A stretch of 64,000 nt of DNA from a virus: IMG/VR virus record IMGVR_UViG_3300029220_000234, positions 1-64,000 of that record; one strand, given 5' to 3'. Each line of letters starts with the position of its first letter. Within the stretch, counting starts at the first letter, position 1. Positions 14,726 to 43,019 of the stretch are shown in pieces. The notes under the pieces are model-generated. The model did not search any database. It was not told the origin of the DNA and saw only the letters and a list, made by a program, of their open reading frames with translations. Made by a program: the position numbers and the translations under genes.

Positions 14726-14732
14726 CAAAAAT

Positions 14733-15911: not shown

Positions 15912-15942
15912 CTCCGATAACTGGTATTCACAGACAATATCA

Positions 15943-15975
15943 TGTTGCGAAACTGTGCGAATTGCAGACAATTAA
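15943..15975 (+). promoter_or_regulatory. Phage-type promoter (TTGCGA ... TGTGCGAATTGC ... GACAAT)
   Basis: Consensus match directly upstream of the 16012 gene. Confidence 0.55.
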
Positions 15976-16011
15976 AAGTGAATGAATTACAAAAGCTACA
16001 GAGGATAAACA

Positions 16012-22460: not shown

Positions 22461-23015
22461 ATGCGTACAGACAAGACGGCAAGCCACATTTGCTACGAGC
22501 TTGACCACGATGTGCAGGAATATGCGAAACGGCTTTTAGCCAAAAAAATTCTGCACGCGGCACAGCAGGACAATGCCGTTCCGTTCCCTGATGAAACGGC
22601 AAAGAGAATTGCCGAGACGGCGGTGTTTCTGACCGAACGCCTCACGCTTTTGTATGAGGTCAGTTCTGGCTTTCGAGGCATTCGGTTCAGCGATTCCGGG
22701 AAACAACCCGCTGTTTATACTACCATGGTTCAGCGCAATGCTCCTTTGTACGATGAGCCGATGCTTGGGCGGGCCTACAACCTCGCCAGCTTCCTTGCCG
22801 CTGAAAATGCGGATATCAGAGAAGTGGTTTTGATGAAGCATGGGGTTTTGGCGGCAATTTATAATGCTGCTGCGCACATGAAAGAGCGGACTCCGGAGCC
22901 GGGGAAAATCACGGTTCAGAGCCAGCTGTTTGTGTCCACGGCGGTTGAGCTGTTCGATGGCCTTTCGGATGCGGCGACAGAAAAGAAGAACGACAGCGAT
23001 AAAAGCGCTGCCTGA
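22461..23015 (+). CDS. Hypothetical protein
   Basis: RBS AGGAGGTAATCAT-ATG. 184 aa. Confidence 0.45.
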   Translation: MRTDKTASHICYELDHDVQEYAKRLLAKKILHAAQQDNAVPFPDETAKRIAETAVFLTERLTLLYEVSSGFRGIRFSDSGKQPAVYTTMVQRNAPLYDEPMLGRAYNLASFLAAENADIREVVLMKHGVLAAIYNAAAHMKERTPEPGKITVQSQLFVSTAVELFDGLSDAATEKKNDSDKSAA

Positions 23016-23037
23016 GCTATAAATTAGGAGAATTTGT

Positions 23038-23490
23038 ATGATTCGATTCAGAAAAGATACCCCTCGCTACTGGTTTATGAGTAACTATTATCCTTGCGAA
23101 TTCGTGATGGATGGGATTCGTTACAAGAATGCCGAAGCAGCGTTTCAGAGCCACAAGGTTCCGCTGGAAGAGCGCAAACAATTTTCAGACATGCCTCCGG
23201 CAACGGCTAAGCATTTTGGCCGTCATGTGGCTTTTCCTGCCAACTGGGACGAAACCCGGGACGATGTAATGCGCCGCGTGGTGATGGCCAAATTCGAGCA
23301 GAATGAGGACCTCAAACAGCGCCTCCTCGAAACGGGTACGCAGCCTATTGAGGAAGACACGACCAGCTGGCATGACAACTATTGGGGCAACTGCCACTGC
23401 CCGAAATGCCGGAACATCCCGGGCCAGAATCGGCTCGGTATCATTCTGATGGAAACCAGGGACAAGCTGAAAAAGCAAGCGGCCAAATAA
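23038..23490 (+). CDS. NADAR (YbiA/DUF1768) family ADP-ribose-processing enzyme
   Basis: WFMSNYYPCEFVMDGIRYKNAEAAFQSHK... matches the NADAR N-terminal signature (F.SNFYP..F..DG..Y.S.E..FQ..K). Confidence 0.7.
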   Translation: MIRFRKDTPRYWFMSNYYPCEFVMDGIRYKNAEAAFQSHKVPLEERKQFSDMPPATAKHFGRHVAFPANWDETRDDVMRRVVMAKFEQNEDLKQRLLETGTQPIEEDTTSWHDNYWGNCHCPKCRNIPGQNRLGIILMETRDKLKKQAAK

Positions 23491-23594
23491 TGCTTGCAAT
23501 GGCTTGCGGGTTCCATGTAATTAAAGGTGTAATCAAAAAGAATTATCTTTTGCGAGGACTCCGTTGCTGACGGCGTTCTCGTTCTCTTTTTTTA

Positions 23595-23655
23595 CAAAGA
23601 CAAAAGGCTGCCGCCCATCATGGGCAGCAGCCTTCTTTTTTTGTTTGTATCAACC
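23595..23655. terminator. Bidirectional intrinsic terminator between convergent genes
   Basis: AAGGCTGCCGCCCATCATGGGCAGCAGCCTT flanked by A-runs on one side and T-runs on the other. Confidence 0.55.
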
Positions 23656-23693
23656 GATAGGGCAGCAAATCATCTTGCCGCATTCAGAACGAC

Positions 23694-25580
23694 TCACTGA
23701 ACAACCTCGCCAAGGTCGTTTGCATATTTCGGGTCACACATCATGAAGTAGTTGACGGGGCCGTACTCCAGACCGAGCTCCTGCGCGTATGCCTTGATGG
23801 CTTCCAGGACGTCCTCTTTCTTGAGGCCAAACTTGGAATGCAGACGGGCAAACTCTTTGTCAGAGACAGAAACGCAAGAGCAATTTTCTGCATCGGTTTC
23901 TTTGCTGCCCAGCATCCCGTCAAAGATGTCCTGTCCTGCACAGAGAATCGTCTCATTGTTCATCACATAGGCGATAACGGAAGCCTTACAGTCAAAGTCG
24001 CTGTCTTCCACAAGGAAATCCTCAGGGCGGCCGTGACGTTCAACAACGTTTTCATAGATGTCCCGGAGTTCGATAGGAGCAGAAGGAGCGGTCAGCGCTG
24101 CTTTATGAAGGCGCATGAATTCCACGAACTTTTCATCCGAGAGGGTATCGGTATAAAAGCCGATGCCGGAAACGCGAACCTTCACTTCGCTGGCAAAGTA
24201 ATCGTCAATTTTGGAGACGATTTTCTGCTGGACCCGCTTGTATGCTTCCTGAACATTGGAAGCCGTGTAAAATACCGGAAACTTCATGATGTCGATTTCC
24301 TCCGGCAGACTCGCGTCATAGGCCGCATCAATGCCGCCTCGCAGCGCCGGAACCGCGTCATGCAGCTCTTTCACAGAAGAAATGTATCCGGTAATGTACA
24401 GCTCATCGTTTTTGCTGTAATGCCCGATAAGTCCCACATAGAGGGTCTGCATCAGCATCCGCTTGAAGCTGAACCAGCAAAGTCGAATAGGAAGAATGAC
24501 GTTTGCGGCCGAACCTTCCGCGTGATAGTTGCTGGGTGCAGAGACCTTTTCCAGCAGAATCTGGCCGTTCTTGTCACCGTATTTTTCCTTGAAAAGAGCT
24601 TGAAGAATTTCAGTGGACGAAAGAGGAGTGGACATTGGAATCGTTTCATTCAGAAAAGAGAGGAATGCATCCACGTTGTCTTTCTGCCATGCGTCATCAG
24701 ACATGCTTGCACGCTGCATAGAGAGCTTGTCTTTCCCGTCGTCAGGCAAGGGCTCATACCCACAGGCGATACGAAGCTCGTTCTCCGTGACAGCATCCGT
24801 TGCGCTTGCAATTTTCTTGAGGGTGTTTTCGGTCGGCTGAGCTTTTGCGTTGCCATTCACGAGGCTGCTGATATACCCACGAGTCAGTCCTGCCTGAAAC
24901 GCAAACTTACCCTGTGTTCGGGTTCCGATGGCTTTTTTGACCAGCGATGCCAGCCTTTGAAAGTCGGGCTCTTTGGGAAAGGTGGCCTCCGTATCCTTAT
25001 TGCTGTTCTTTTCAAGTACCGACTTGTCCCAACCGGTGACAAGAGAATACCCAATATCCTTCAAGGATTGGTAGGCAACCCCGTTCTGGTCAAGAGCCGG
25101 GGAGAATGTACCGCTGTTATCTTCCAGCTGCTCTACTGCCTCACGCACCATCCTTGCTTCGTTCATCAGGATGACGTCCGGGGCTTCAAGCCGGGCAAGA
25201 CTCTTGTACCGACTATTGAGGCGCTCGACTCGTGCGGCCAATGCAGTGATGTTGGCAACTTGGCCCTTCGTTGCATGGGCAGAGATATCTGCACCAAGTT
25301 CAAAATGGTTCAGTGCAGGAATATCCACGCTTTTGCTCTTGGCGAATTCCACAATGGCTTCCGCGCCATAGAAACGCTTCTCATGGGCTGCGACAACTTT
25401 CGTTATCGTGTCGGCCGAGTTGTCCAGCTCAAGCACTTCACCTTTTCCGGCATCCTCGACATAACACCTGGCGTTGGTGAGAAAGCCTTTCAAAAAATCA
25501 GCATCCACATCCAGCTTCTTAGCGATGCCGGGCAGCTGCTTATAGAAAATCACGGGTGTGGCGAGGTTAACAGAAATCAT
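23694..25580 (-). CDS. Large protein with a central XRE-type HTH
   Basis: The only long minus-strand gene in the phage core. TQGKFAFQAGLTRGYISSLVNGN is a canonical HTH_3 motif. The gene is divergent from the GIY-YIG cluster promoter repeats. Confidence 0.6.
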   Translation of the reverse strand: MISVNLATPVIFYKQLPGIAKKLDVDADFLKGFLTNARCYVEDAGKGEVLELDNSADTITKVVAAHEKRFYGAEAIVEFAKSKSVDIPALNHFELGADISAHATKGQVANITALAARVERLNSRYKSLARLEAPDVILMNEARMVREAVEQLEDNSGTFSPALDQNGVAYQSLKDIGYSLVTGWDKSVLEKNSNKDTEATFPKEPDFQRLASLVKKAIGTRTQGKFAFQAGLTRGYISSLVNGNAKAQPTENTLKKIASATDAVTENELRIACGYEPLPDDGKDKLSMQRASMSDDAWQKDNVDAFLSFLNETIPMSTPLSSTEILQALFKEKYGDKNGQILLEKVSAPSNYHAEGSAANVILPIRLCWFSFKRMLMQTLYVGLIGHYSKNDELYITGYISSVKELHDAVPALRGGIDAAYDASLPEEIDIMKFPVFYTASNVQEAYKRVQQKIVSKIDDYFASEVKVRVSGIGFYTDTLSDEKFVEFMRLHKAALTAPSAPIELRDIYENVVERHGRPEDFLVEDSDFDCKASVIAYVMNNETILCAGQDIFDGMLGSKETDAENCSCVSVSDKEFARLHSKFGLKKEDVLEAIKAYAQELGLEYGPVNYFMMCDPKYANDLGEVVQ

Positions 25581-25794
25581 GGTGTACTCCTTTCAAATAT
25601 GTCATTAGGTGTACAATGCTGTCATCTTCTGTAATTATAATAGCACATCCCGCACCAAAAAGCAAGCAAGAATTTACAATAAATGACAAGAAAATACACG
25701 AGATGACATATTTGAGTGTGACGGCTGATTTTTGAGTCTTTCCTGTTCAGCAGCGGAACAAGCCTTGTGCGTCTTGTCTATGCCATGACTTTGC

Positions 25795-26165
25795 CACTGT
25801 TTTGCCACAGTTTTGCCTTGTGCATCCGTGCAAATTGAATATTATTGTAAATATAGGATGAATCAGTGTGAGCTGCAGAGATTAGGAATTCTGCGGCTCT
25901 TTCTTATGTGGCCCCTAAAAGTCGTGATAAATGCACGCGTGCGTTCTAAAAATGTGTGCGTGCGTTTTTTGTGTATTTTCACGCATTTATCGCTCGTTAT
26001 TTGTGTGGGGTAGTGTTTTGCCATAATTTTGCCTTGTGCATCCGTGCGAATTAAATATGATAAGAAATATAAGATAAATAAGTGTGAGCCGTAGAGATTG
26101 AGTTTCTGCGGCTCCTTTCTTTTGTGGTCCCCATGCGGATGAAAATGTCTGCGTGGGGTTTTTTT
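25795..26165 (+). repeat. Two tandem roughly 210-bp units, each with TTTGCC(A/T) direct repeats, a phage-type promoter and a hairpin
   Basis: Unit 1 spans about 25795-26010 and unit 2 about 26015-26165. They share TTTTGCCTTGTGCATCCGTGC(A/G)AATT...AATA...AGTGTGAGC.G.AGAGATT....TCTGCGGCTC. The second unit ends in CCCCATGCGG...CTGCGTGGGG followed by TTTTTTTT, directly before the GIY-YIG start. Confidence 0.6.
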
Positions 26166-26170
26166 TAATT

Positions 26171-27361
26171 ATGGAATACTTGTATAAGCAATATAACAAC
26201 GAACCCGGGAAAGCTCCGACAGGAGAAAAATATATATACGTTATTACTGAAATAGAAACAGGAAAAATGTATATAGGACAAACCAGTAATTTCCACGCTC
26301 GTATGCGTTCGCATAGAACCTGCAAGTGCAACCAACATAGCGCAATTGATAGAGCTATTCAAGAAAAAGGTGCGGACGCATTCCAATATGAGATTTTAGA
26401 GTTGTGTGCTGCTGATGACGCTGATAGCAGAGAACGATATTGGATAGAAAAATCCGATTCTTGCAATGAACAAAAAGGTTTCAATACGTTTAAGGGCGGC
26501 CAAAAGAGTTTTTCAGATGAAAACTACTCTATGCTTGTAGAAATGCTTCAGCAAGGAATGACATTAAAGACTGCGTGTGACGCTATAAATACCTCTATTG
26601 CTTCTGCAAGGAGAGAATTGAAGAGGCGAGACACAAATTTGTCGGAAATCCGCTGTTCGGCAGCCGAACATAAATATCTGCGCCGCAAAAGCACTCTCGG
26701 AAAAGAAATCAATATAGCTGACGTACTGAAAATGTATCAAAATGGCATGTCATCGAAAGAAATAGCAGAGCACTATGGTATGAACTCATCCGCTTTTTAT
26801 CGCCGGTTAAAAGAAAATGGGTTGAGCGCCAGAGCAATTGCTCAGCCAAATTACGGAACAGCATCTGCTCTTTTCGACAAAGATAAAGCTATTGCAATGT
26901 GTAAAGACGGATATTCTGCCAGCGAGATAGGCGATGCTATGGGATTGCCGTATTACACAATAGAGAGGCTTCTTCGAAAGTCTGGATATTCTATATCATT
27001 GATTGCAGATGAAGAAGCAGCAGATAAAAGAAAGAAGCGAAACAAAAAACGAAGCCAAAATGGAAACTTCAATTTTGAAATGGCCGTTGATTTTTTAAGA
27101 GAAGGTTACAAGATACAAGCGATAGCTGATTTGATGGGCATATCAGATGCTCACCTAAGAACAAAGCTCAAACAAAACGGCTTTGATTTAGAAAAAACGC
27201 TTCCAATTATAGTCTGTGACGAAACGGGCGAAACGTTTCTTACAATGATAGAAGCGGCAAAAGCGTACAACGTAAGCTATACATCACTACGGAAATGTTT
27301 TGAAAAAAAGCAGGGTTACTGTGGCGGCTACCATTGGCACAAAGAAAAGCAGAATTTTTGA
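26171..27361 (+). CDS. GIY-YIG homing endonuclease with C-terminal NUMOD / HTH repeats
   Basis: The catalytic module is KYIYVITEIETGKMYIGQTSNFHARMRSH...RERYWIEK. Four HTH repeats follow (...MSSKEIAEHYGMNSSAFYRRLKENG and similar), with a C-terminal IENR-like motif. No SD is visible. The start is taken at MEYLYKQ. Confidence 0.8.
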   Translation: MEYLYKQYNNEPGKAPTGEKYIYVITEIETGKMYIGQTSNFHARMRSHRTCKCNQHSAIDRAIQEKGADAFQYEILELCAADDADSRERYWIEKSDSCNEQKGFNTFKGGQKSFSDENYSMLVEMLQQGMTLKTACDAINTSIASARRELKRRDTNLSEIRCSAAEHKYLRRKSTLGKEINIADVLKMYQNGMSSKEIAEHYGMNSSAFYRRLKENGLSARAIAQPNYGTASALFDKDKAIAMCKDGYSASEIGDAMGLPYYTIERLLRKSGYSISLIADEEAADKRKKRNKKRSQNGNFNFEMAVDFLREGYKIQAIADLMGISDAHLRTKLKQNGFDLEKTLPIIVCDETGETFLTMIEAAKAYNVSYTSLRKCFEKKQGYCGGYHWHKEKQNF

Positions 27362-27408
27362 CTCCAATGCAAAATACAGCATCGGATTTTTTATTGGGAG
27401 ATATAGAC

Positions 27409-28395
27409 ATGGCAAAGAATGAGAATCTGCACAAGGCAAAGGACGCGAAGAACGACGAGTTTTATACCAGAATCGAGGATGTTGCAGAGGAACTACGGCA
27501 CTACAAAAAGCATTTCGCGGGCAAGGTCGTATTCTGCAACTGCGATGACCCGACATGGTCCGCTTTCTGGCGGTATTTCCACCTGAACTTTGCAGAACTT
27601 GGCTTAAAGAAGCTGATTTCCACGCACTACGACCGTACAGAACCCACCTATAAAATGGAGTACGAGGGCGGAGATGACAACAATGTAGAAGTCGGAGTCA
27701 AGACTCCGCTGGAAGGCAACGGTGATTTCCGGAACAAAGAATGCCTTGACCTGCTGGATGAGTGCGACACCGTAGTCACAAATCCTCCATTCAGCTTAGC
27801 TAGAGCCTATGTCCAGTATCTACGTGAGCACAATAAGCAATTCGTTATTATTGGGGACCTCAACTGGATTACATACAAAGAAATTTTCCCGATGCTGAAA
27901 GATAATGAAATCTGGCTGGGATATTCTTCTGTAAAAGAGTTCACGCAACCTGACGGGACAATCAAGAAGTTCGGGAATAAATTGTGGTATACCAACCTCG
28001 ACATCCAGAAACGTCACGAGAAGCTGATTCTCTGGCAGCGGTACTATGACGATGACGGGAATCCGCTGCCGGATGCAGAGGAGCGCTACCCCCACTATGA
28101 TAACTACGACGCTATCAACGTGGATAGGGTCGCCGATATTCCGATGGATTATCAAGGTGTAATGGGTGTGCCGATTACATTCTTGAATGGTTACAATCCG
28201 GAGCAGTTTGAAATTGTGGAGTTAAGTAGATATCTTAACCATGAAGGAATGTCTAAGAAATTCGTTGAAACGTATTACAAACAAGGCGGAAAAGGCCAAA
28301 TTAAAGAAGGTCATCCAGACCTTTGCTATTATGATGACAAAGGTAAAGCAATCGTTCCATACATGCGAGTCCTTATAAAGAAAACAATTGCTTGA
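27409..28395 (+). CDS. Putative DNA N6-adenine (or N4-cytosine) methyltransferase
   Basis: TNPPF catalytic motif IV. Start at MAKNENL after a GGGAG RBS. Adjacent to the homing endonuclease. Confidence 0.55.
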   Translation: MAKNENLHKAKDAKNDEFYTRIEDVAEELRHYKKHFAGKVVFCNCDDPTWSAFWRYFHLNFAELGLKKLISTHYDRTEPTYKMEYEGGDDNNVEVGVKTPLEGNGDFRNKECLDLLDECDTVVTNPPFSLARAYVQYLREHNKQFVIIGDLNWITYKEIFPMLKDNEIWLGYSSVKEFTQPDGTIKKFGNKLWYTNLDIQKRHEKLILWQRYYDDDGNPLPDAEERYPHYDNYDAINVDRVADIPMDYQGVMGVPITFLNGYNPEQFEIVELSRYLNHEGMSKKFVETYYKQGGKGQIKEGHPDLCYYDDKGKAIVPYMRVLIKKTIA

Positions 28396-28448
28396 AATTG
28401 AATGTAATGTGCTTATTCTTTTTGTAAATAATGAGAGGAGAAAAAGCA

Positions 28449-29231
28449 ATGAAACTGATTGAATATCCCACGATGAACGCGGATATGTATTCACGCGTTA
28501 CATCAAATTATTCGTACTCTCCTTTTGAGTGTGTTACAACACCGTGGAGAAGCTATCCAAGCACACCTATTAAAGTACCTCATCCCGATACATGTCCATG
28601 CTGCAATAAAGTAATGTCGGATGATTTGAGCCCGGTAATGGCAATTAACAACATCAACATCGGAGAAGAAAAATACGAAAAATGCAAAGTAGTATCAGTT
28701 TATAGATGTGCATCGTGTAATTCGCTATTTGCAATTTGGAGTGAACATAAAGCAATCGAGCAAGACGAAACAACATTGGAAAATTTATCATATACATGCA
28801 AAATACTTGCCATGTTTCCTTTTGAAAAAGTTACAGTATTTACTCAAAACATTACCAATTTGTCTGCGGAATTTGTATCTGTATTTAATCAAACTGAAAT
28901 CGCAGAAGCGCAAAATTTGAATGATATTTGTGGTATGGGGTACAGGAGAGCATTAGAGTTTTTGGTGGATGCTTACATACGGAAAAATAGACCCGCAGAA
29001 ACCATTGATGCGAGCCTCCCTCTCAGCAAAAAAATACGCGATTATATCGATAACGAGCAAATTAAAACATTAGCACAAAAATCGGCGTGGCTTGGAAATG
29101 ATGCTACGCACATTGTAAACAATCATCCAGATAGAAGTGTAAAAGATGTCAAAAAATTTATAAAAGCTATAACAGCAATAATTGATGCCGAATTTGCTTG
29201 TGAAGACGCAAGTACCATAGAAAGGAATTGA
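28449..29231 (+). CDS. Cys-rich N-terminal domain plus a DUF4145-like C-terminal domain
   Basis: Start after GAGAGGAGAAAAAGCA. C-terminus ...ICGMGYRRALEFLVDAYI...AWLGNDATH resembles DUF4145, a domain common in defence-associated proteins. Confidence 0.45.
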   Translation: MKLIEYPTMNADMYSRVTSNYSYSPFECVTTPWRSYPSTPIKVPHPDTCPCCNKVMSDDLSPVMAINNINIGEEKYEKCKVVSVYRCASCNSLFAIWSEHKAIEQDETTLENLSYTCKILAMFPFEKVTVFTQNITNLSAEFVSVFNQTEIAEAQNLNDICGMGYRRALEFLVDAYIRKNRPAETIDASLPLSKKIRDYIDNEQIKTLAQKSAWLGNDATHIVNNHPDRSVKDVKKFIKAITAIIDAEFACEDASTIERN

Positions 29232-29237
29232 ACAACA

Positions 29238-30374
29238 ATGAAAATCACAGAAACGAAAATCAAGGTATCTGACCTTGTCGAGAACTACAAGGACAATGGT
29301 GATGGCGGAGTCTTTGGCTACAACGACCGCCTTACGATTCGCCCGTCTTTCCAGCGCGAGTTCATTTATGGAGAAAAACAGCGTGCAGCCGTCATCGATT
29401 CCGTAATGAACGGATTCCCTCTGAACGTCATGTACTGGTCTAAGACCGGGACTGACACATACGAGGTTCTTGATGGGCAGCAGCGTACCGTCTCTATTGC
29501 TCAGTACATCAACAAGGATTTTCCTATCAAAATCAATGGCAACGATAAGTTCTTCCAAAACTTGACCAACGAGGAAAAGCAGACAATTCTGGACTATGAA
29601 CTGACGGTTTATGTCTGCGAAGGTACTGAGGCAGAGAAGCTGGAATGGTTTAAGCGCATCAACATCGCTGGTGAAGTTCTGACTCCGCAGGAACTGCTGA
29701 ATGCTACTTATACAGGACCGTGGCTGGCCGATGCCAAGAACTACTTCTCGAAACGCAACTGTGTTGCTGCGAAGATGGCTGACGGATACCTGAAAGGCAA
29801 CCCGATTCGGCAGGAGTTGCTGGAAAAGGCACTGGCGTGGATTGCTGACCGTGACGGTCTGGAATCCGGGCAGATGTACATGGCGGTTCACCAGCATGAC
29901 GAGGACGCCAATGACCTCTGGCTTTACTTCCAGTCTGTCATCAACTGGGCGAAGATGTTGTTCCCGACGAAGCGGAAGGGAATTACTGATACGCAAGCAT
30001 GGGGTTTGCTCTATAACCAGTATCATACTAAGCAGTACAACAGCAACGCTCTGGAAGCTGATATCAAGAAACTCGTGCTGGATGATGATGTAACCAAGAA
30101 GGCAGGCATCATCCCGTTCATCCTCTCTGACCGTACTTGGCGTGACGAAAAGCATTTGTCCCTGCGTGCGTTTACCGAGTCTCAGAAGCTCCGTGCCTAC
30201 GAGCGGCAGGGTCACAAGTGTCCGCTGTGCGTTGCGAACGGCATCAACACCGAGTATGCCTATGAGGATATGGAAGGTGACCACATCATTCCTTGGAGCA
30301 AGGGCGGACATACCACGGATGACAATTTGCAGATGCTGTGCAAGAAGTGCAATTCGGCGAAGGCGGATAAGTAA
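29238..30374 (+). CDS. DUF262 (ParB/GmrSD-N-like, DGQQR motif) fused to an HNH endonuclease
   Basis: N-terminal FQREFIY...VLDGQQRTVSI. C-terminal CPLC...GDHIIPWSKGGHTTDDNLQMLCKKCNSAK HNH motif. Confidence 0.75.
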   Translation: MKITETKIKVSDLVENYKDNGDGGVFGYNDRLTIRPSFQREFIYGEKQRAAVIDSVMNGFPLNVMYWSKTGTDTYEVLDGQQRTVSIAQYINKDFPIKINGNDKFFQNLTNEEKQTILDYELTVYVCEGTEAEKLEWFKRINIAGEVLTPQELLNATYTGPWLADAKNYFSKRNCVAAKMADGYLKGNPIRQELLEKALAWIADRDGLESGQMYMAVHQHDEDANDLWLYFQSVINWAKMLFPTKRKGITDTQAWGLLYNQYHTKQYNSNALEADIKKLVLDDDVTKKAGIIPFILSDRTWRDEKHLSLRAFTESQKLRAYERQGHKCPLCVANGINTEYAYEDMEGDHIIPWSKGGHTTDDNLQMLCKKCNSAKADK

Positions 30375-30393
30375 AGTTGATAGGGAGGATGTG

Positions 30394-30855
30394 ATGAAAT
30401 ATCGCTATTTTATGTGCGGCATGTTCACTGGCACAGATGGAAACAGATACGGCATCAGCATCCCGTCTCCGTTCGTGAGAGATTCAGAATCGGAAGCGAT
30501 GAAAGACGAGGTTTTTGGCTATCGGTTCCTGACCATCGATTCGGCAGAGCCTCTGCTGGTCGTCTTTGCAAACGAGCACTTTGAGCCCATGAACAACGAC
30601 AAAATGCAGGTAAGATGCTGGGTAGACAAGAACGTTGTCGGGATTTATACCTTTGAAGAATTCAAAAAAAATGGCGGGTATATTCGACAACTGAAGCCGA
30701 GCAGCAGGGGAAAGTATGTAACTGATGAATCTGACTTTGTTGATGTTGACAAGTCGTTTGCTGATATATTCCCAAACATGGAAAGGCGCAAACTGTGTTA
30801 TATTGACGATGAAGCATACAAGATTAGCGAGGTAGAAGACAATGCTCAATACTAA
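30394..30855 (+). CDS. Hypothetical protein
   Basis: RBS GGGAGGATGTG-ATG. 153 aa. Confidence 0.45.
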   Translation: MKYRYFMCGMFTGTDGNRYGISIPSPFVRDSESEAMKDEVFGYRFLTIDSAEPLLVVFANEHFEPMNNDKMQVRCWVDKNVVGIYTFEEFKKNGGYIRQLKPSSRGKYVTDESDFVDVDKSFADIFPNMERRKLCYIDDEAYKISEVEDNAQY

Positions 30856-31309
30856 GAAAACCACACGCAAGAGCAATCACGGAAGTGAATCAACTTACTC
30901 CGGCTCTGTGACTGCCGTCACATCCAAGACTATTGTGGTCTTCATCCCGGCACTCGATGTCGAGGTGGATGTCCAGCGTAACCCCGACACATCCGCCCAG
31001 AACGGTTCTGTCCCCGAAGTGGGAGATATTGCTACTGTGCAGGTTACTCTCCGAGATGGTGACACTATTACCATTGCCGCCACCTTCGTACCGCAGCAAG
31101 ACATTGGTAAGGATACTTCAACCGATAACGACGATTTACTTTTACCGGATGACGATTGGAATGGCAACACAGCTCACACACAGCGACAATATAGCCACCA
31201 CGCAAACCGGCTCAATCCAAATAATAGTGCGTATACAGCTGCAATGAACAATCATGCAAACCAGTGCAATCCTAACAGCCCCAACTATCGTGGGAATCGA
31301 GGCAAATGA
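30842..31309 (+). CDS. Hypothetical protein with a C-terminal N.HANQ.NPN..NY repeat
   Basis: RBS GAGGTAGAAGACA-ATG. C-terminal Asn/His/Pro-rich tandem motif. Confidence 0.4.
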   Translation: MLNTKKTTRKSNHGSESTYSGSVTAVTSKTIVVFIPALDVEVDVQRNPDTSAQNGSVPEVGDIATVQVTLRDGDTITIAATFVPQQDIGKDTSTDNDDLLLPDDDWNGNTAHTQRQYSHHANRLNPNNSAYTAAMNNHANQCNPNSPNYRGNRGK

Positions 31310-31376
31310 GACCAAAGATTCCGCTAAATAAAAATAGACGACAATAATCAAATAAGATAAAATTGGAGGAAGCCCT

Positions 31377-31733
31377 ATGGTAGTTAAAGGAGAATCTTGT
31401 TTTGTTTCTATGAAATTGAGTATGAAATCCACTGATACTACGAGCGAAGGAATCATTATGCCGGATTTTCTTTGCTCTAGTGCAGACTTTTCACTTCCCT
31501 ACAATCCAGAGATTATCGACAAGTTTGTCTATGACGATAAACTAATTTCTCACATGATTCACGAATTGTATAGTCTCGTGAAGTGTCTTCGTCCTGATAA
31601 ATTGGACGGCAAAGAAAAATGTCTGGTGCTGGATATTGACGTTGATGATGAATTCTATGATTTCTATGATGTATACGTAACTATGAACAAAGACACTTGT
31701 ACCTACAGGGTCGAAGAAGATGATGACTGCTAA
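31377..31733 (+). CDS. Hypothetical acidic protein
   Basis: RBS GGAGGAAGCCCT-ATG. Confidence 0.4.
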   Translation: MVVKGESCFVSMKLSMKSTDTTSEGIIMPDFLCSSADFSLPYNPEIIDKFVYDDKLISHMIHELYSLVKCLRPDKLDGKEKCLVLDIDVDDEFYDFYDVYVTMNKDTCTYRVEEDDDC

Positions 31734-31921
31734 TGTGCTGCGCTCTCTCATCATACGATACAACGTTCTGAATGGCGCTTGTGGCGCTGCTTGAGATTAA
31801 GCTGACAGGTACCGGAGCTTATCTCTAAACCCTTGAAAAAAGAAGTGGAACGCAACAATATAGAAAATTATTAGAATTTTTTGAGAAATCCGACCTAGCC
31901 GGATTCCACGCTACTGGAGCA

Positions 31922-31955
31922 ATTGACCAGTCTTGCGAGCTGCGTAGAATTAAAA
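31922..31955 (+). promoter_or_regulatory. Phage-type promoter (TTGACC ... CTTGCGAGCTGCG ... TAGAATTA)
   Basis: Consensus-like. Upstream of the 31997 gene. Confidence 0.45.
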
Positions 31956-31996
31956 GTGCAAGAAGAAACCCAAAACACACAAAGGAGAATGCCAAC

Positions 31997-32317
31997 ATGT
32001 ACACTTGCACTTTGAAATTCGAAGCAACCGCGTTCCGCGAGGATGACGACAACGAGCTCGAAAGCATCTCTGCTTCCATCAGCGTCCCTGTAAAGGGCGA
32101 AGATGAAGATGTTGGAGAAGCACTTGGCAATGAAAAGCTGATTGTTCACGCCGTTGGAGCTCTGTATGACATCGTCAGCTACCTGCGCCCCAACTGGCTG
32201 GATAACGAAGATACCAGCCTGACTATCAAGGCATTCCTGGACGAAGCCGAGTGCCAGACGCTCAAGGGTCTTGTCGCAATGAAAGAGGGCGGCTATACCT
32301 TCATCCTTGAGGGCTAA
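31997..32317 (+). CDS. Small acidic hypothetical protein (GC3-rich)
   Basis: RBS AAAGGAGAATGCCAAC-ATG. Followed by a terminator. Confidence 0.45.
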   Translation: MYTCTLKFEATAFREDDDNELESISASISVPVKGEDEDVGEALGNEKLIVHAVGALYDIVSYLRPNWLDNEDTSLTIKAFLDEAECQTLKGLVAMKEGGYTFILEG

Positions 32318-32336
32318 GTATCTCAAACAAAAGTAA

Positions 32337-32378
32337 ACCCTGCTCGCAGTAAAATGCGGGCGGGGTCTTTTTTTGTTT
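32337..32378 (+). terminator. Intrinsic terminator
   Basis: CCCTGCTCGCAGTAAAATGCGGGCGGGG followed by TCTTTTTTTG. Confidence 0.5.
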
Positions 32379-32647
32379 GACAAGGTGTGCGAGATGGCTA
32401 TGATGATTATTGTATCAAAGATACCACTTACCTTCATTTTTAACATTCCGCTTTTGCAAGGACAGCCTCATTCCGAGGTTGTCCTTTTTCTTTTGCGTAA
32501 CTCTCCACGGAAACACTTGTCCCCGTGTTTAACATAAATCCGCAAGCTGCTCTAAATTTTGGAACAGCTTAATCAATTCAAATCGTACGAAAGTACGAAA
32601 ACGCTACGCAAACATTCTGCGTAGACTGTAAAAAAGGAGTAATAATT

Positions 32648-32947
32648 ATGAAGTTCGAAAATCTTTACATCCGTGCCACCCGTCATGGCAGCCAGGAACC
32701 CACCGAAATCAACCTTGCGGACGCCCTGAAGCTTCTCGGCATCCTTGACGCAGCCAACATAGCTCACTTTGACCTTGTGGTCAAGGACGAGAACGGCTGC
32801 GAAATCGCCGCCCAGGTCGATGGCGAAGGCGTCCTTTCGGACGGAATCAACATCGAAGGCGTAAACGAAGCTGGTGAACCTACCGGTTTTGCCCACGTCG
32901 CTCTCCCCAGTGAGGATTGCCCTCACATTGTCACCGAAATCCTGTGA
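32648..32947 (+). CDS. Small hypothetical protein (GC-rich). Its frame stays open for 66 more codons beyond the TGA, to 33146
   Basis: RBS AAAAGGAGTAATAATT-ATG. Composition and codon bias differ from neighbouring genes. See the finding on the in-frame TGA. Confidence 0.45.
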   Translation: MKFENLYIRATRHGSQEPTEINLADALKLLGILDAANIAHFDLVVKDENGCEIAAQVDGEGVLSDGINIEGVNEAGEPTGFAHVALPSEDCPHIVTEIL

Positions 32948-33454
32948 GGCGACGGTGACACCGAAGACCTTGACCATCCGGTTCTCGTGCGCGTCCCTGA
33001 CTGCGTGCGTGCCGAAGGGGACAAGAGTCTCCGCAAGGTGTACTTCGACAAGGAAGTTGCGAGTGCAACTGGCTTCAACACGGAGGAAGACCAGTCCAAG
33101 CTCAACGCATCCACCGTGGATGAGTACACCCGCAGCATGAAGAAGTGATTCTTCATGTTTCCCTAAGCATTGCCTTTAAGCTTTGTTTCTAGCTGCAGTA
33201 TGAATCAAGGCTGAATTGGCCCGGCTTGAAAGTCGTTCACCTTTTGGTGAGCGGCTTTTTCTTTTTGCCTGTTTGCGTAGCTGCGCTTTTTTCGTCGCCG
33301 AAACCGTAGGTGGCGGGATGCGTAGCTGCCGACATGGCTTGACCTGATGTGCGAGACTCGTACAATCAGATTTGTACGACAGATATCAAACACAAAATAG
33401 GACAAAATAGGATTTACATTGAGCTGTTCAGTGGCCTTATGGCTGTTGGATAGC

Positions 33455-33488
33455 TTTTTCTTTTGTGCGAGTTGCGTACAATAAAAAC
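33455..33488 (+). promoter_or_regulatory. Phage-type promoter (TTTGTGCGAGTTGCG ... TACAATAA) now feeding into the IscB element
   Basis: Consensus match. The GGAGG at 33492-33496 was probably the original RBS of the lipoprotein gene at 35124. Confidence 0.5.
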
Positions 33489-33504
33489 AAACGGAGGAAA
33501 TTAC

Positions 33505-33810
33505 CGTCAATAACCCACGACTAAAGTCGCGGGCTTGCTCCGGCAAGTCCGCACTTTAGAAGTGTCCGCAAGGATATGTTGACTACCCTTTGCGCATTAA
33601 GTTGCGCCCCGTTATAAGCGAATAGACAGTTACCGTACGGTGTAAATCCTAGCCGTGCGCTCTAAGGCAACACATCACGTAAAGCTGAGGCAAAGCCGAC
33701 AGGTGTGGCTGCATCAAGCCGTTTATAACCTTGGGGAAGGATTTTAACCCTCTTCGGAGGAGCGAGCAGCTTCTTTTTAGCTGCTAATTTACAGAAAGGA
33801 GCATGGCATC
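33505..33810 (+). ncRNA. Putative IscB omega-RNA scaffold
   Basis: 306-nt non-coding, GC-rich, hairpin-dense region between the left end and the iscB RBS (CTTGC-TCCG-GCAAG, CTCTTCGGAG, AGCAGCTTCTTTTTAGCTGCT). This is the position where IscB omega-RNAs are encoded. Confidence 0.5.
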
Positions 33811-35073
33811 ATGCAATATGTGTATGTACTCAACAGGCACGGCGAGCCTATGATGCCGTGCTCACCCGGAAAGGCTCGTTTGCTATTAAAACAGCAAAAA
33901 GCATGCGTTGTAAAGCGCACACCGTTTACAATCAAGCTCCTGTGCGGAAGCGTGGGATACAAACAACCTATCACTTTGGGCGTTGACGCAGGCAGCAAGC
34001 ATGTTGGTTTGTCTGCATCTACCGAGAAGCGCGAACTCTACCGTGAGGAATTTACTCCTCGCAGCGATGTAGCAGAATTGCTTTCTACGCGCAAACAAAA
34101 CCGCCGTTCGAGACGCAACCGTAAGACCCGTTACCGCGCACCGAGATTTGATAATCGCGTCCATAGCAAGCATAAAGGTTGGCTGGCACCTTCGGTTGAG
34201 GTAAAAATTCAAGAGCATATTACCGTCATCAAGCATATCTGCAAAATTTTGCCTATCTCTCTTGTAAGAGTAGAAACAGCAGAGTTTGACACGCAGCGCT
34301 TGAAGGCAATGCTTGCTGGAAAGCCTCTTCCTGTAGGAACAGACTATCAGCTTGGCGAGATGTACGACGAATACAATGTCCGTCAGTATGTCTTGAAGCG
34401 TGACCATTACACTTGTCAATGCTGTGGTGCTCATAATACTGCCGAAAAAGTAGTCAAGCTGCATGTACATCATCTCGAAAGCCGTAAGACTGGCGGCAAC
34501 GCTCCAAGCAACCTTGTTACTTTGTGTACCACATGCCACAAGAACCTTCACAAAGGAAGAGTGACCCTTGACGGCAAGGAACGCGGCAAGCCTCTTCGTG
34601 ATGCTGCTTTCATGGGAATCATGCGCAAAACCTTAATGACACGTTTGAAAGAAGAGCTGCCTATCCCTGTTCAGAGGACTTATGGCTATATCACTAAAAT
34701 GCGCCGTGAGCAAAATGACATCAAGAAGAGTCATACAAACGATGCTCGCTGTATTAGCAAGCATCCACTGGCTGAGCCTTGCAGCGTTTGCTACCGTACA
34801 AAGGCTATCAGACACCATAATCGGCAAACCCATAAAGCAAATTTCTCTAAAGGTGGCTACCGGAAAAGAAGTCAAACACCTTATATCGTTGAAGGCTACC
34901 GCTTGTGGGACAAGGTTCTCTACAAAGGGCAAGAATGCTTTGTATCCGGCCGCCGCTCTTCGGGAAGTTTTGCACTTAAAAAGCTGGATGGTACGAGCAT
35001 CTCTAAAGGCGTGACATTCAAAAAGCTGCGACTTTTAGAGCCCGCAGCAAATTATTTAATTGAAAGGATGTGA
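33811..35073 (+). CDS. iscB: IscB (OMEGA RNA-guided nuclease; RuvC-HNH-RuvC with PLMP N-terminus)
   Basis: PLMP-type N-terminus HGEPMMPCSPGKARLLLKQQKA. RuvC-I ITLGVDAGSKHVGLS. Zn finger DHYTCQCCG. HNH HHLESRKTGGNAPSNLVTLCTTCHKNLH. Arg-rich bridge helix. 420 aa. Confidence 0.85.
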   Translation: MQYVYVLNRHGEPMMPCSPGKARLLLKQQKACVVKRTPFTIKLLCGSVGYKQPITLGVDAGSKHVGLSASTEKRELYREEFTPRSDVAELLSTRKQNRRSRRNRKTRYRAPRFDNRVHSKHKGWLAPSVEVKIQEHITVIKHICKILPISLVRVETAEFDTQRLKAMLAGKPLPVGTDYQLGEMYDEYNVRQYVLKRDHYTCQCCGAHNTAEKVVKLHVHHLESRKTGGNAPSNLVTLCTTCHKNLHKGRVTLDGKERGKPLRDAAFMGIMRKTLMTRLKEELPIPVQRTYGYITKMRREQNDIKKSHTNDARCISKHPLAEPCSVCYRTKAIRHHNRQTHKANFSKGGYRKRSQTPYIVEGYRLWDKVLYKGQECFVSGRRSSGSFALKKLDGTSISKGVTFKKLRLLEPAANYLIERM

Positions 35074-35123
35074 ACGGGCAATTCCTCCCACGACTGAAGT
35101 CGCGGGTCTCCTTGCCCTAATTT

Positions 35124-35531
35124 ATGAAAAGATTTATTGGAACTGCTTTGGCATTATGCTGCCTGGCTTTGCCTTTGGCTGGCTGCAAAGAAGCTGTCGG
35201 CACTGTGACAAGCACCACGATGTCTGAACTCGAAGACATTCCGAGTCAGATATTGGCTACACCGGAAAGCGCTGATACGGAACCGGAATACAATTACATC
35301 CATTTTCGCTACGATAACATCTGGACCGTGTCTGCCCTTGTGAGCTACGAAATTGTGGACAACGGCCAGAACATTAAATTTGAAATCAACGATAGCCGTT
35401 ACCGTGACAAGGTCTTTTATACCAGCATGTCTAATGTGGAACTCGTATACCGAGACAATAACGTTGATTATGGCACAGACTATGCTATTTATCCAGGGAA
35501 TGCTTCGAAATTTGGAAAGGGGAGTAAGTGA
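35124..35531 (+). CDS. Lipoprotein separated from its RBS by the IscB insertion
   Basis: MKRFIGTALALCCLALPLAGC signal peptide plus lipobox. No SD in the 50 nt upstream, which is IS right-end sequence. Confidence 0.55.
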   Translation: MKRFIGTALALCCLALPLAGCKEAVGTVTSTTMSELEDIPSQILATPESADTEPEYNYIHFRYDNIWTVSALVSYEIVDNGQNIKFEINDSRYRDKVFYTSMSNVELVYRDNNVDYGTDYAIYPGNASKFGKGSK

Positions 35532-35532
35532 G

Positions 35533-36009
35533 ATGAGCGTGAAATTCATTGACGGCGATATCCTTTCCAAACGTTCTGAAGACGAACTGACCTACATTTG
35601 CCAGCAGGTGAATTGCCGTGGCGTGATGGGTGCCGGACTCGCTCTGCAAATCCGCTGCAAGTGGCCGGTCGTGTATCGGCGGTATCTGGGACTCTGCTAT
35701 GGCAGCGACGGAAACAAGCTCGGAATGTATCAGGAGGTCCTGGTAGAACCGAATCTGTACATCGTAAACCTGTTTGGCCAGGATGGCTATGGTCGGAGCG
35801 AAAGACAGACGAATTATGCTGCGCTGGCGACTGCACTGTTCTCATTTTTCCGAGACTGTGCTCAAAAGAATCAGAGCGCAATCATCCGGCTGCCATATGG
35901 TTTAGGCTGCGGCCTTGCTGGAGGTGACTGGGACATGGTTCTCGCCATCATCAGCGATGCGGCTAAAGCCTCGGACTTGAATGTCGAAATCTGGAAGCTT
36001 CAAAAGTGA
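35533..36009 (+). CDS. Macro-domain (ADP-ribose binding / hydrolase) protein
   Basis: YICQQVNCRGVMGAGLALQI matches the macro signature (VNAAN..L..GGGV..AI). RBS AAAGGGGAGTAAGTGAG-ATG. Confidence 0.75.
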   Translation: MSVKFIDGDILSKRSEDELTYICQQVNCRGVMGAGLALQIRCKWPVVYRRYLGLCYGSDGNKLGMYQEVLVEPNLYIVNLFGQDGYGRSERQTNYAALATALFSFFRDCAQKNQSAIIRLPYGLGCGLAGGDWDMVLAIISDAAKASDLNVEIWKLQK

Positions 36010-36018
36010 TAGCAAAAA

Positions 36019-36055
36019 AGGCCCTTACCGAAATTTGGTAGGGGTCTTTCCTTTT
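36019..36055 (+). terminator. Intrinsic terminator
   Basis: GGCCCTTACCGAAATTTGGTAGGGGTC followed by TTTCCTTTTTG. Confidence 0.5.
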
Positions 36056-36167
36056 TGTAGGGAGCATAAATATGGATAAATTGCAAACAAATAGTACCTT
36101 CTGTTGCGGGAAAAGCACGATGGTGGGATAATATTATTAGAAAGGCAGCGACAAAACCAGCAGTAAA

Positions 36168-37190
36168 GTGAGTGAAAAACCTATGACGAATACAGAAATG
36201 AAAGCAACCATCCAACGTGAGGAATACAACTTCCTGCGCACCAACAAACACTTGGGTAGCAACATTTTGTTTTTGACGCTTGGCGGCAGCCATGCTTACG
36301 GAACCAACGTTGAAGGCTCTGACATCGATATCCGTGGCGTGGCCGGTTCGCCTGAAATTTTGGGATTCAATCATTTTGAGCAGGCAATCGATAACCAAAC
36401 GGATACCGTCATCTACGCGGTCAACAAATTCGTCAGTTTGCTTGTGCAGGGCAACCCCAACATTATCGAACTTCTTGGCAATGACCCGGAGTTGTACGTT
36501 AATATGACACCGGAAGGCCAAATGCTGCTCGACAACAAAGAGCTATTTTTGACTCGCCGCATTGCCTATAGCTACGGCGGATTTGCGAACGACCAGCTCA
36601 GACGCCTGCAGATGGGCCTTCTTCGGAATGGGACCTCGCCAGAAGCATTTAAGAACAAATTTGAGAAGAGGAGCTTGGAACGGTCGATTGCCGGTTGGGG
36701 TAAGGATGACATTTTTGAAATCTCCATCAGCGAAGATGCGGATGAAGAAGGCAAACATCCGCTCCTGATTTCCGGCAATTTGAACGATTATCCGGTCACC
36801 TCTCTCAAGTCCCTGCTAAAGAGTCTGACTACGACCATCGACCAGTATGAGCAGCCGCAGCATCCGAAAGCACAAAAAGATGCTGCCCACATCAACAAAC
36901 ACGCGATGCACATTGTGCGGCTGTACTACACCGCGTTCGATATCCTGGAAAAGGGCGAAATCATCACTCGCCGGGACAAAGAGCGAGAAGAGCTGTTGGC
37001 GATTCGCAACGGCAAGTACCTGCGTGAAGACGGGTCGTATGCACCGGAATTCTTCGAGTTTGTTGATGCGCTTGAAAAGAGATTTCAGGATGATGCAAGG
37101 AAGACTGCACTTCCTGCGAAACCTGACTTTGGAAAAATTGAGGAGCTTCTGGTGGAAATCAACAAGGAATATTTGCGGCGTATCGTGTAA
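36168..37190 (+). CDS. Pol-beta-fold nucleotidyltransferase
   Basis: LTLGGSHAYGTNVEGSDIDIRGV is the canonical GS...D.D NTase motif. The start is uncertain (GTG at 36168 or ATG at 36183). Confidence 0.6.
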   Translation: MSEKPMTNTEMKATIQREEYNFLRTNKHLGSNILFLTLGGSHAYGTNVEGSDIDIRGVAGSPEILGFNHFEQAIDNQTDTVIYAVNKFVSLLVQGNPNIIELLGNDPELYVNMTPEGQMLLDNKELFLTRRIAYSYGGFANDQLRRLQMGLLRNGTSPEAFKNKFEKRSLERSIAGWGKDDIFEISISEDADEEGKHPLLISGNLNDYPVTSLKSLLKSLTTTIDQYEQPQHPKAQKDAAHINKHAMHIVRLYYTAFDILEKGEIITRRDKEREELLAIRNGKYLREDGSYAPEFFEFVDALEKRFQDDARKTALPAKPDFGKIEELLVEINKEYLRRIV

Positions 37191-37304
37191 AGCGGAACAC
37201 CAACGACAACAACCATCAAGGTTGTACAAGATTATGCGCTCATCCGCAAAATGCGGGTGGGCGTTCTTTTTTTGCAAAAAAACAAAAATAAAACATAGCA
37301 AAAA

Positions 37305-42964: not shown

Positions 42965-43003
42965 GGACTTATCCCATCGTGGGGTAGGTCCGCTTTTTTT
43001 GTT
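42965..43003 (+). terminator. Intrinsic terminator directly before the MBL lipoprotein RBS
   Basis: GCGGACTTATCCCATCGTGGGGTAGGTCCGC followed by TTTTTTTG. Confidence 0.5.
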
Positions 43004-43019
43004 GAAAGGAGAAGAATTC

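Follow-up and report, generated by a model that had tools for sequence, protein, structure and literature searches.

DarT1 ADP-ribosylates guanine, a modification that is reversed by NADAR enzymes, and DarT2 ADP-ribosylates thymine, a modification that is reversed by macrodomains (PMC11543638). Phages carry orphan members of both enzyme families. [quoted passage not shown] In this study, we have analyzed positions 1 to 64,000 of the IMG/VR virus record IMGVR_UViG_3300029220_000234 (this whole 64-kb stretch is called the window below), which encodes a NADAR, a macrodomain, and an RlaP-family nucleotidyltransferase (NTase). The best explanation overall, to which we assign a probability of roughly 0.55, is that the NADAR and the macrodomain are a dual armor against DarT enzymes, accompanied by RNA-end repair by RlaP.

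Residues and substrates are known for several members of these families. The E36A and K43A mutants of T4 AdfN lose counterdefense (PMC11257639), and mutation of the catalytic residues E88 and K95 inactivates the Escherichia coli C7 NADAR (PMC11543638); Glu33 and Lys40 of the window NADAR correspond to these residues. Every NADAR subfamily tested, YbiA and phage gp30.3 included, removes guanine-linked ADP-ribose (ADPr) in vitro (PMC11125620). The macrodomain protein SCO6735 strips thymidine-linked ADPr from DNA and rescues cells from DarT, and its Q85A and N27S mutants are dead for this reaction (PMC9411070). Co-occurrence of Macro and NADAR above chance in DNA viruses was reported in 2022 (PMC9503650). 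The biochemistry of the RlaP enzymes PfRlaP and PaRlaP has been characterized: RlaP enzymes add one or two nucleoside monophosphates to RNA 3'-OH ends, with a preference for damaged tRNA mimics, and restore the aminoacylation of a tRNA that is short of one nucleotide; they are inactive on DNA or protein (PMC12776372).

Results

The three genes are as follows.

23038..23490, + strand: NADAR gene; 150 aa, assigned to the YbiA-like branch, single-domain and stand-alone, intact open reading frame (ORF)
35533..36009, + strand: macrodomain gene; product of 158 aa in the SCO6735/BT1257/T4-Tk.4 subtype of the ALC1/TARG1-like class, single-domain and stand-alone
36183..37190, + strand: RlaP-family Pol-beta nucleotidyltransferase gene; 335 aa from the ATG at 36183, in an ORF that opens with a GTG at 36168

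A preliminary description of this DNA had proposed that these genes form a probable counterdefense set. As far as the genes themselves are concerned, it was accurate: all three are intact plus-strand ORFs, the NADAR and the macrodomain are each a small protein with one domain, and the NTase-fold gene is the next gene after the macrodomain gene, 173 bp downstream, with a terminator-like hairpin between the two. The catalytic residues, whose loss would have spoken against its proposal, are in place (Glu33 and Lys40 in the NADAR; Asn27 and Gln83, together with the glycine loops, in the macrodomain).

NADAR

The NADAR protein matched Pfam PF08719 with an E value of 1.3e-26 (94.3 bits; cut-off, 35.1) over residues 4 to 145 of 150 and PHROG 1017 with an E value of 1.7e-36; an AGGAG ribosome-binding site is located 7 nt 5' of its ATG. 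Glu33 and Lys40 lie in the motif NAEAAFQSHK and align with E36 and K43 of T4 AdfN and with the YbiA motif, and Glu106 and Asp113 align with acidic residues of YbiA. In the PDB, the protein matched E. coli YbiA (2b3w; 5e-14) and the P. nicotianae NADAR (8bau; 4e-11); the G. lovleyi DarG1 NADAR was not matched at an E value of ≤1. Residue 2 aligns with YbiA residue 17, the start of the YbiA core, and the 150-aa protein is without the N-terminal beta1-beta2-alpha1 extension by which DarT1-associated NADARs form a basic DNA groove (PMC11543638). With 82.6 bits, the protein exceeded the cut-off (73.7) of NCBIfam TIGR02464, the riboflavin biosynthesis intermediates N-glycosidase model, and with 20.4 bits it fell under the cut-off (36) of Pfam Phage_30_3 (PF08010), the family of T4 AdfN (gp30.3), to which it is ~25% identical. 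Judged by these alignments and profiles, the window NADAR is a member of the YbiA-like branch and is not DarG1-like.

No DarT1 gene adjoins the NADAR gene, whose neighbors encode a 184-aa protein (p184) and, convergently, a 628-aa helix-turn-helix (HTH) protein, and no ADP-ribosyltransferase (ART) family was found in the window scans. Homologues of the NADAR were present in 428 of 50,697 phage records. Among them is a NADAR of 106- to 120-kb Escherichia and Salmonella phages (~32% identity; E value, ~1e-11); the size of these phages suggests that they are T5-like. NADAR-Bas32 comes from a T5 relative, and orthology to it would, on phage type only, be conceivable.

Macrodomain

The macrodomain protein itself matched no Pfam family at an E value of ≤0.01, PF01661 (Macro) included; PF01661 was present in homologues at 45 to 48% identity. 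A sequence search of the PDB returned SCO6735 (5e3b; 1e-12), BT1257 (2e-10), Poa1p (1e-6), Mycobacterium tuberculosis DarG (3e-6), and TARG1 (2e-4). A profile built from 35 homologues matched only ALC1/TARG1-like macrodomains, namely, BT1257 (3e-24), SCO6735 (7e-22), Poa1p (4e-14), DarG (6e-14), and TARG1 (5e-10). The AlphaFold2 (AF2) model (predicted local distance difference test score [pLDDT], 90.8) has the predicted three-layer alpha/beta macro fold: in the Foldseek comparison that the preliminary description had suggested, its template modeling (TM) score was 0.86 to BT1257 (2fg1) and 0.75 to 0.83 to SCO6735, TARG1, Poa1p, and DarG. Further matches were to PHROG 335 (3e-36) and to the macro part of DarG in PADLOC (2e-14); the label of the family in PHROG and RefSeq is "phosphatase."

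Both glycine loops, MGAGLA (32-37) and GLGCGLAGG (123-131), are largely invariant in the family, and the residues that were invariant in the 35 homologues comprise Q25, V26, N27, M32-G33, G35-L36-A37, N79, Q83, G125-C126-G127-L128, G130-G131, and W133. Gln83 occupies the position of the catalytic lysine in DarG (Lys80) and PhiKZ AdfM (Lys78), and it aligns with what we take to be Lys84 of TARG1, the numbering of K84 and D125 being consistent with the TARG1 sequence used. In the alignment, the Asn27/Gln83 pair corresponds to the N27/Q85 signature of SCO6735, in which the Asn holds the Gln. The protein is also homologous to T4 Tk.4 (BLASTP E value, 9e-12), with the glutamine aligned. Against the NCBIfam DarG model it scored 52 bits (cut-off, 250), covering only positions 2 to 147 of 338, and it has neither a catalytic lysine nor a C-terminal DarT-binding domain. 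By sequence, then, the macrodomain is not a lysine-type copy of DarG and is not an orthologue of DarG or PhiKZ AdfM.

Macrodomain homologues were found in 1024 of the 50,697 phage records. Beside the homologues in bacteria and metagenome-assembled genomes, the families most often seen among 146 flanking ORFs were NAD synthase (6), YezG-like proteins (6), MutS_V (5), NAPRTase/NAMPT (4), cREC (2), and KptA (1); DarT was not among the 25 commonest of the 62 families at these positions.

RlaP nucleotidyltransferase

Gene callers placed the start of RlaP at the ATG at 36183 on identical metagenomic contigs, and an exact-protein look-up of the 340-aa version that starts at the GTG returned no record. 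The protein matched Pfam PF10127 (6.8e-20; 72.2 bits; cut-off, 23), with only the N-terminal 127 residues aligned to the model, and PHROG 388, "nucleotidyltransferase," over its full length (1.3e-51); all listed full-length homologues carry PF10127. Thirty homologues of 43 to 91% identity all keep a GS motif (residues 35 and 36) and the catalytic triad of Asp47, Asp49, and Asp74. In the AF2 model (pLDDT, 86.8), an N-terminal NTase domain is followed by a helical C-terminal domain. When this model was compared by Foldseek with a PDB set that apparently lacks PfRlaP, no close solved structure emerged: the matches were weak and to NTases in general, the best being kanamycin NTase (E value, 5e-3), and Hailong HalB was matched at 0.02. 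Scores for Pfam NTP_transf_2 (18.8 bits; cut-off, 21) and Polbeta (16.8 bits; cut-off, 26.9) were below the cut-offs, and neither PADLOC nor NCBIfam gave a match. RlaP homologues were present in 369 of the 50,697 phage records.

No gene for an RNA ligase, KptA, polynucleotide kinase (PNK), or tRNA was detected in the window (~40 proteins scanned) or in annotated relatives, the rest of the phage genome lying outside the view of this analysis. Two unrelated elements (designated L057 and L145, as other contigs are below) have a CCA-adding enzyme close to RlaP, and the closest annotated RlaP, that of the Clostridioides difficile phage AR1086-1, has kptA at a distance of 5 kb. These neighbors strengthen the case for RNA repair, and the best reading of RlaP is that it repairs RNA ends and so counters defenses that cleave RNA.

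The RlaP gene is also a recombination and indel hot spot among the relatives, and many 438-aa database proteins (P0037-P0070) keep only the C-terminal 64 to 83% of RlaP, joined to unrelated N termini.

Genomic organization and selection

The features that surround the three genes are listed below.

22461..23015, + strand: p184; 184 aa, directly upstream of NADAR
23602..23636, no strand: 16-bp GC-rich hairpin flanked by T/A runs on either side, located where the NADAR (+) and HTH628 (-) genes converge
23694..25580, - strand: HTH_3 backbone protein of 628 aa (HTH628), convergent with NADAR
23694..35073, no strand: NADAR to lipoprotein-macrodomain interval; HTH628 backbone plus ~9.5 kb of variable cargo
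35124..35531, + strand: lipoprotein gene; 135 aa, signal peptide, lipobox LAGC
36017..36049, + strand: terminator-like hairpin with 15 pairs and a T-run, in the macrodomain-RlaP gap
37236..37264, + strand: terminator-like hairpin after RlaP

The backbone order is a 731-aa helicase, p184, and NADAR; convergent HTH628; a cargo segment; the lipoprotein, macrodomain, and RlaP genes; a second cargo segment; and a UvrD-like helicase. Transcription of the region is almost wholly on the plus strand. The three genes are neighbors in a variable accessory region between two conserved helicase genes and do not form an operon, because terminators separate them and relatives gain or lose each of them independently; in the strict sense, therefore, the idea of one set does not hold. 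The hairpin between NADAR and HTH628, for which the minus strand came from the terminator scan and the plus-strand T-run was read directly off the sequence, is a probable bidirectional terminator. The lipoprotein stop codon (TGA, 35529-35531) and the macrodomain ATG at 35533 are separated by 1 nt, an arrangement of translational coupling, and this adjacency is kept in close relatives.

Presence, absence, and truncation were compared across 30 related contigs. The distance from NADAR to the macrodomain gene is ~12 kb in the window, compared to ~3.4 kb in L020 and L025-L033 and ~1 kb in L004/L005; the extra ~9.5 kb of cargo in the window encodes a GIY-YIG endonuclease, an EcoRI-like methylase, a DUF4145 protein, a type II restriction endonuclease (REase), small ORFs, and an omega RNA with IscB (Pfam, PADLOC). 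L021, L023, and L024 have the macrodomain gene but no RlaP gene, and L038 and L039 have a truncated macrodomain gene; in L008 and L012, GmrSD_N and RlaP have been joined by a deletion, and L011 lacks the macrodomain, RlaP, and UvrD-like genes. The macrodomain and RlaP genes are adjacent in most close relatives, and this adjacency is absent in RlaP relatives at 45 to 52% identity. In the distant phage L057, the macrodomain gene is flanked by ORFs that were read, from sequence only, as SLOG-like and DUF4326-like, and ~1.3 kb downstream of it are an RlaP-like N-terminal ORF (34% identity with RlaP of the window) and a CCA-adding-enzyme-like ORF.

Comparison with the relatives gave median ratios of nonsynonymous to synonymous substitution rates (dN/dS) of 0.05 for NADAR (dS, 0.68), 0.10 for the macrodomain (dS, 1.15), and 0.054 for RlaP (dS, 0.74). 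Positive selection was sought in the three genes as a signature of counterdefense and was not found; all are under purifying selection and encode constrained, functional proteins. The macrodomain, with a median identity of 78%, is the most diverged protein of the block, and HTH628 is highly conserved (96 to 97% identity). Synonymous divergence is uneven between adjacent genes (dS of 0.075 for HTH628 versus 1.15 for the macrodomain), which indicates allele exchange by recombination. A weak likeness to RNA polymerase beta' was seen in residues 108 to 175 of HTH628 (29 bits, far under the cut-off).

The p184 gene adjoins NADAR in every NADAR-bearing relative. Its product matched nothing in Pfam, PHROG, PADLOC, or NCBIfam and is the fastest-evolving protein of the block (72 to 92% identity; dN/dS, 0.24); it could be a further counterdefense candidate.

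Origin of the window

The window is probably part of a large gut phage with a Faecalibacterium or other Oscillospiraceae host. Related IMG/VR viral contigs are 88 to 389 kb long, with macrodomain identities of 76 to 93%, and identical or related genes are carried by human gut metagenomic contigs of 35 to 237 kb. The 731-aa backbone helicase is 52% identical to the helicase of Faecalibacterium phage FP_Lugh and to helicases of streptococcal prophages. Positions 10583-10652, at the end of a VWA-domain gene, form a hepatitis delta virus (HDV)-like self-cleaving ribozyme of the Faecalibacterium prausnitzii type (Rfam RF02682; 60 bits versus 44), which hints at a Faecalibacterium-related host. That the DNA is of phage nature is plausible: Mor, YopX, and Bro-N/ANT genes are present and many proteins have PHROG matches, with the caveat that no structural genes were found in the 64 kb. 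Megablast gave no match in phages for 23000-37200 or 39001-64000 and none in plasmids for 1-25000, and a scan of genome contigs with the 731-aa helicase returned no relative and hence neither a prophage nor a host by that route.

Neighboring elements

Several other mobile or defense-related elements were observed. Within the variable cargo between the NADAR and macrodomain genes, the gene at 33811-35073 encodes an RNA-guided nuclease, IscB (328 bits with NCBIfam guided_IscB; RRXRR and HNH in Pfam), and is paired with a HEARO/omega RNA directly upstream (33506-33748; 79 bits, slightly below the Rfam gathering score of 83). A second HEARO/omega RNA, at 5875-6135 (91 bits, above the gathering score), has no adjoining IscB and is an orphan or remnant guide RNA; the gene that follows it encodes an SPFH/flotillin protein (6193-7836). 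The gene at 49649-50980 encodes a TnpB-family RNA-guided endonuclease (5e-20 with NCBIfam guided_TnpB), and 17729-18175 encodes a short fragment with the TNB domain of TnpB/Cas12f, so that, with IscB, several obligate mobile element-guided activity (OMEGA)-type elements occur in one phage region.

Positions 27334-30374 hold an apparent phage-borne type II restriction-modification module composed of an EcoRI-like adenine methylase (27334-28395; Pfam, 9e-105), the DUF4145 protein (28431-29231), and a protein with GmrSD_N and HNH domains (29238-30374) that gave a full-length match (9e-132) to a type II REase model of PADLOC. In L004, Cas5d, Csd1 (Cas8c), and Cas7, a type I-C Cascade in which no Cas3 was seen, are encoded together with TnpB at 12183-17344, inserted between RlaP and the UvrD-like helicase, a position at which the window has nothing. 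The products of the relatives of the gene at 16608-17501 carry a precomputed match to PF26125, "AcrVA2-like," and the window protein had none in the Pfam scan (E value, ≤0.001). A metallo-beta-lactamase (MBL)-fold protein (42999-44180) has the MBL domain of ComEC/Rec2 as its nearest match (137 bits in NCBIfam, under the cut-off), and its relatives showed only a faint match to the anti-Pycsar protein Apyc1.

Discussion

The NADAR and the macrodomain are best read as a dual anti-DarT armor because T4 has the same pair, AdfN against DarTG1 and AdfM against DarTG2. The reading is based on the identity of the domains, their intact catalytic residues, the purifying selection on the genes, their accessory and mosaic behavior, and homology to validated factors. 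[quoted passage not shown] The two enzymes may act like orphan antitoxins, erasing DarT1-type (guanine) and DarT2-type (thymine) marks on replicating phage DNA, which is what AdfN and AdfM of T4 do; all three auxiliary enzymes would be transcribed separately from the variable accessory region. We infer the in vivo substrates, as well as the matching ADP-ribosyltransferases or anticodon nucleases of the host. The armor against DarTG that was envisaged in the preliminary description is therefore sustained in part: homology to T4 Tk.4 and the residues shared with T4 AdfN support it, but the NADAR is not DarG1-like, nor is the macrodomain a lysine-type DarG copy.

Several observations weigh against this reading. 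The NADAR scores above the cut-off for the riboflavin-intermediate N-glycosidase model and has no counterpart of the N-terminal DNA-binding extension of DarT1-linked NADARs; moreover, E. coli YbiA gave no protection against DarT1 in cells (PMC11125620), which makes the in vivo target of the window NADAR uncertain. In the macrodomain, Ala34 and Gln25 replace SCO6735 Lys34 and Val25, residues that matter for activity on DNA, Lys34 in DNA positioning and Val25 as the holder of the catalytic water (PMC9411070). Its bacterial homologues adjoin NAD synthase, NAMPT, cREC, or KptA, with DarT outside the 25 commonest families, which also fits a small-molecule ADPr or NAD role of the macrodomain. DarT and NAD salvage genes were not found among the ~40 scanned window proteins or in annotated relatives, and RlaP has no RNA ligase, KptA, or PNK partner within the 64 kb.

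The same neighbor contexts, in bacteria and in L057, keep two other explanations of the macrodomain alive. It can be envisioned that the NADAR and the macrodomain act not on modified DNA but on small-molecule derivatives of ADP-ribose, such as Thoeris-type cyclic or histidine-ADPR signals, ADPr-1''-phosphate, O-acetyl-ADPr, or by-products of NAD+ depletion, thereby blunting immune signaling or toxicity based on NAD or ADPr or feeding NAD+ salvage. This is unlikely, even if the NAD synthase, NAPRTase/NAMPT, and cREC genes counted among the 146 flanking ORFs, the SLOG-like and DUF4326-like ORFs of L057, a YpsA/SLOG gene just past the window start in relatives, and the clear relationship of the macrodomain to the yeast ADPr-1''-phosphate phosphatase Poa1p (4e-14) are all consistent with it. 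Of the closest characterized homologues, SCO6735 works on DNA with thymidine-linked ADPr and T4 Tk.4 works against DarTG2 (PMC9411070; 10.1101/2025.11.20.689424), base-linked ADPr is the target of all NADARs tested, and no NAD salvage, Nudix, or SLOG gene was found inside the window. Alternatively, the macrodomain and RlaP may be an RNA repair pair rather than part of an anti-DarT device, with RlaP restoring cleaved tRNA ends and a Poa1p-like macrodomain clearing the ADP-ribose-1''-phosphate that arises when KptA/Tpt1 removes 2'-phosphates. Their adjacency in most close relatives and again in the distant L057, the kptA gene of phage AR1086-1, the bacterial macrodomain homologues beside KptA (one) and cREC (two), and the "phosphatase" label would all suit such a pair. 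We nevertheless regard it as quite unlikely: KptA, RNA ligase, and PNK are missing from the window and its annotated relatives, a terminator stands between the two genes, each is found without an intact copy of the other (macrodomain alone in L021, L023, and L024; RlaP by a truncated or deleted macrodomain gene in L008, L012, L038, and L039), RlaPs at 45 to 52% identity have no macrodomain neighbor, and T4 Tk.4, which bears the same label, is an anti-DarTG2 factor. There is also a slim chance that the NADAR and the macrodomain are directed at ADPr marks on RNA or on other bases, and not at those of DarT, and form with RlaP an RNA-centered counterdefense island; such marks could include cytidine-N4 modification, CmdT-like adenine-N6 modification of mRNA, and ADP-ribosylation of RNA at phosphate ends or 2'-OH groups. 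If this were true, ADP-ribose would be stripped from damaged RNA before its 3' end is rebuilt, a coupling that has not been described previously.

The remaining alternatives concern single proteins. As a YbiA-type N-glycosidase, the NADAR might destroy reactive intermediates of the riboflavin pathway and be an auxiliary metabolic gene with no part in defense evasion. This is improbable: the TIGR02464 score, E. coli YbiA as the best PDB match, and the annotation of several phage homologues as GTP cyclohydrolase II, COG3236, or riboflavin proteins point that way, but there is no riboflavin gene in the window, and the distribution over 428 phage records from many hosts is hard to square with riboflavin damage control. 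Furthermore, E. coli YbiA and a myxobacterial YbiA-like protein hydrolyze guanine-ADPr, the latter being the antitoxin of an ART toxin (PMC11125620), and cytidine-ADPr is also removed by YbiA-type NADARs (PMC12945103). The preliminary description had further supposed that the NTase modifies nucleotide signals as an enzyme directed against Thoeris or the cyclic oligonucleotide-based antiphage signaling system (CBASS), or that it is a counter-toxin resembling a minimal nucleotidyltransferase (MNT). We consider this very improbable. The generic Pol-beta fold and weak Foldseek matches to MntA and Hailong HalB (E values, 0.02 to 0.5; TM scores, ≤0.41) are what favor it, against a clear RlaP family match, an NTP_transf_2 score below the cut-off, and a length of 335 aa with an RlaP-type helical C-terminal domain, MNT proteins being ~100 to 140 aa long. 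To our knowledge, no Pol-beta NTase is among the known proteins that counter CBASS, Thoeris, or Pycsar, which are phosphodiesterases or sponges. These identities were rejected on the basis of the RlaP profile, the architecture, and the lack of a PADLOC or NCBIfam match.

Neither a dual anti-DarT strategy nor the co-occurrence of NADAR and macrodomains is new; both have been published, and no new mechanism is proposed here. What the window adds is an extension of the orphan antitoxin idea, whose earlier base was E. coli and Pseudomonas phages (T4 AdfN and AdfM; PhiKZ AdfM), to a large gut phage that is uncultured and whose host is probably Faecalibacterium or another member of the Oscillospiraceae, which suggests that ADP-ribosylating defenses matter in gut Firmicutes. 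It also offers two natural variants, a YbiA-type NADAR and a glutamine-type macrodomain without the Lys34 of SCO6735, that bear on how far DNA de-ADP-ribosylation reaches across both families, and the related contigs, in which the genes are variously present, absent, or truncated, form a natural series that lends itself to genetic comparison.

T4 is the direct precedent for this locus. It carries the same three families as small, separate genes, 30.3 (AdfN), tk.4 (AdfM), and nrdC.11 (RlaP; PMC12776372), of which nrdC.11 and tk.4 are 4.5 kb apart. The Glu and Lys residues of the NADAR are conserved between the two phages, Tk.4 likewise has a glutamine at the position of the catalytic lysine, and the N-terminal NTase domain of RlaP is homologous to that of NrdC.11 (E value, 1e-9). 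However, the window proteins are only ~25 to 28% identical to their T4 counterparts, the window NADAR is YbiA-like and lies under the Phage_30_3 cut-off, and the host is probably a gut Firmicute and not E. coli. T4 AdfN is apparently specific to hydroxymethylated DNA (PMC11257639), whereas modified DNA is not known for the window phage.

For the macrodomain, SCO6735 and BT1257 are the best matches in sequence and structure, with Asn27, Gln85 (window Gln83), Gly87, and the GCGLAGG loop in common. Unlike SCO6735, the window protein has Ala34 in place of Lys34 and Gln25 in place of Val25, and its mobile loop, shorter by two residues, is without the Lys89 position, with Arg88 and Arg91 nearby; in addition, SCO6735 and BT1257 are chromosomal, whereas the window macrodomain is phage borne. 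DarG2 and PhiKZ AdfM (gp104) belong to the same macrodomain class (TM scores, 0.77 to 0.80), and the stand-alone, toxinless form is common to the window protein and AdfM; gp104, however, matches DarG at 1e-24, keeps the lysine, and is 24 to 26% identical to the window macrodomain. The window RlaP differs from the Pseudomonas enzymes PfRlaP and PaRlaP in that it does not lie in an RtcB/RtcA or other RNA ligase operon, there being no ligase in the window, but it shares with them PF10127, the trio of catalytic aspartates, and the architecture of an NTase domain at the N terminus and a helical domain at the C terminus (PMC12776372). Lastly, the window NADAR resembles YbiA and other NADARs that are not linked to DarT in having a minimal YbiA-like core in which the catalytic residues are kept.

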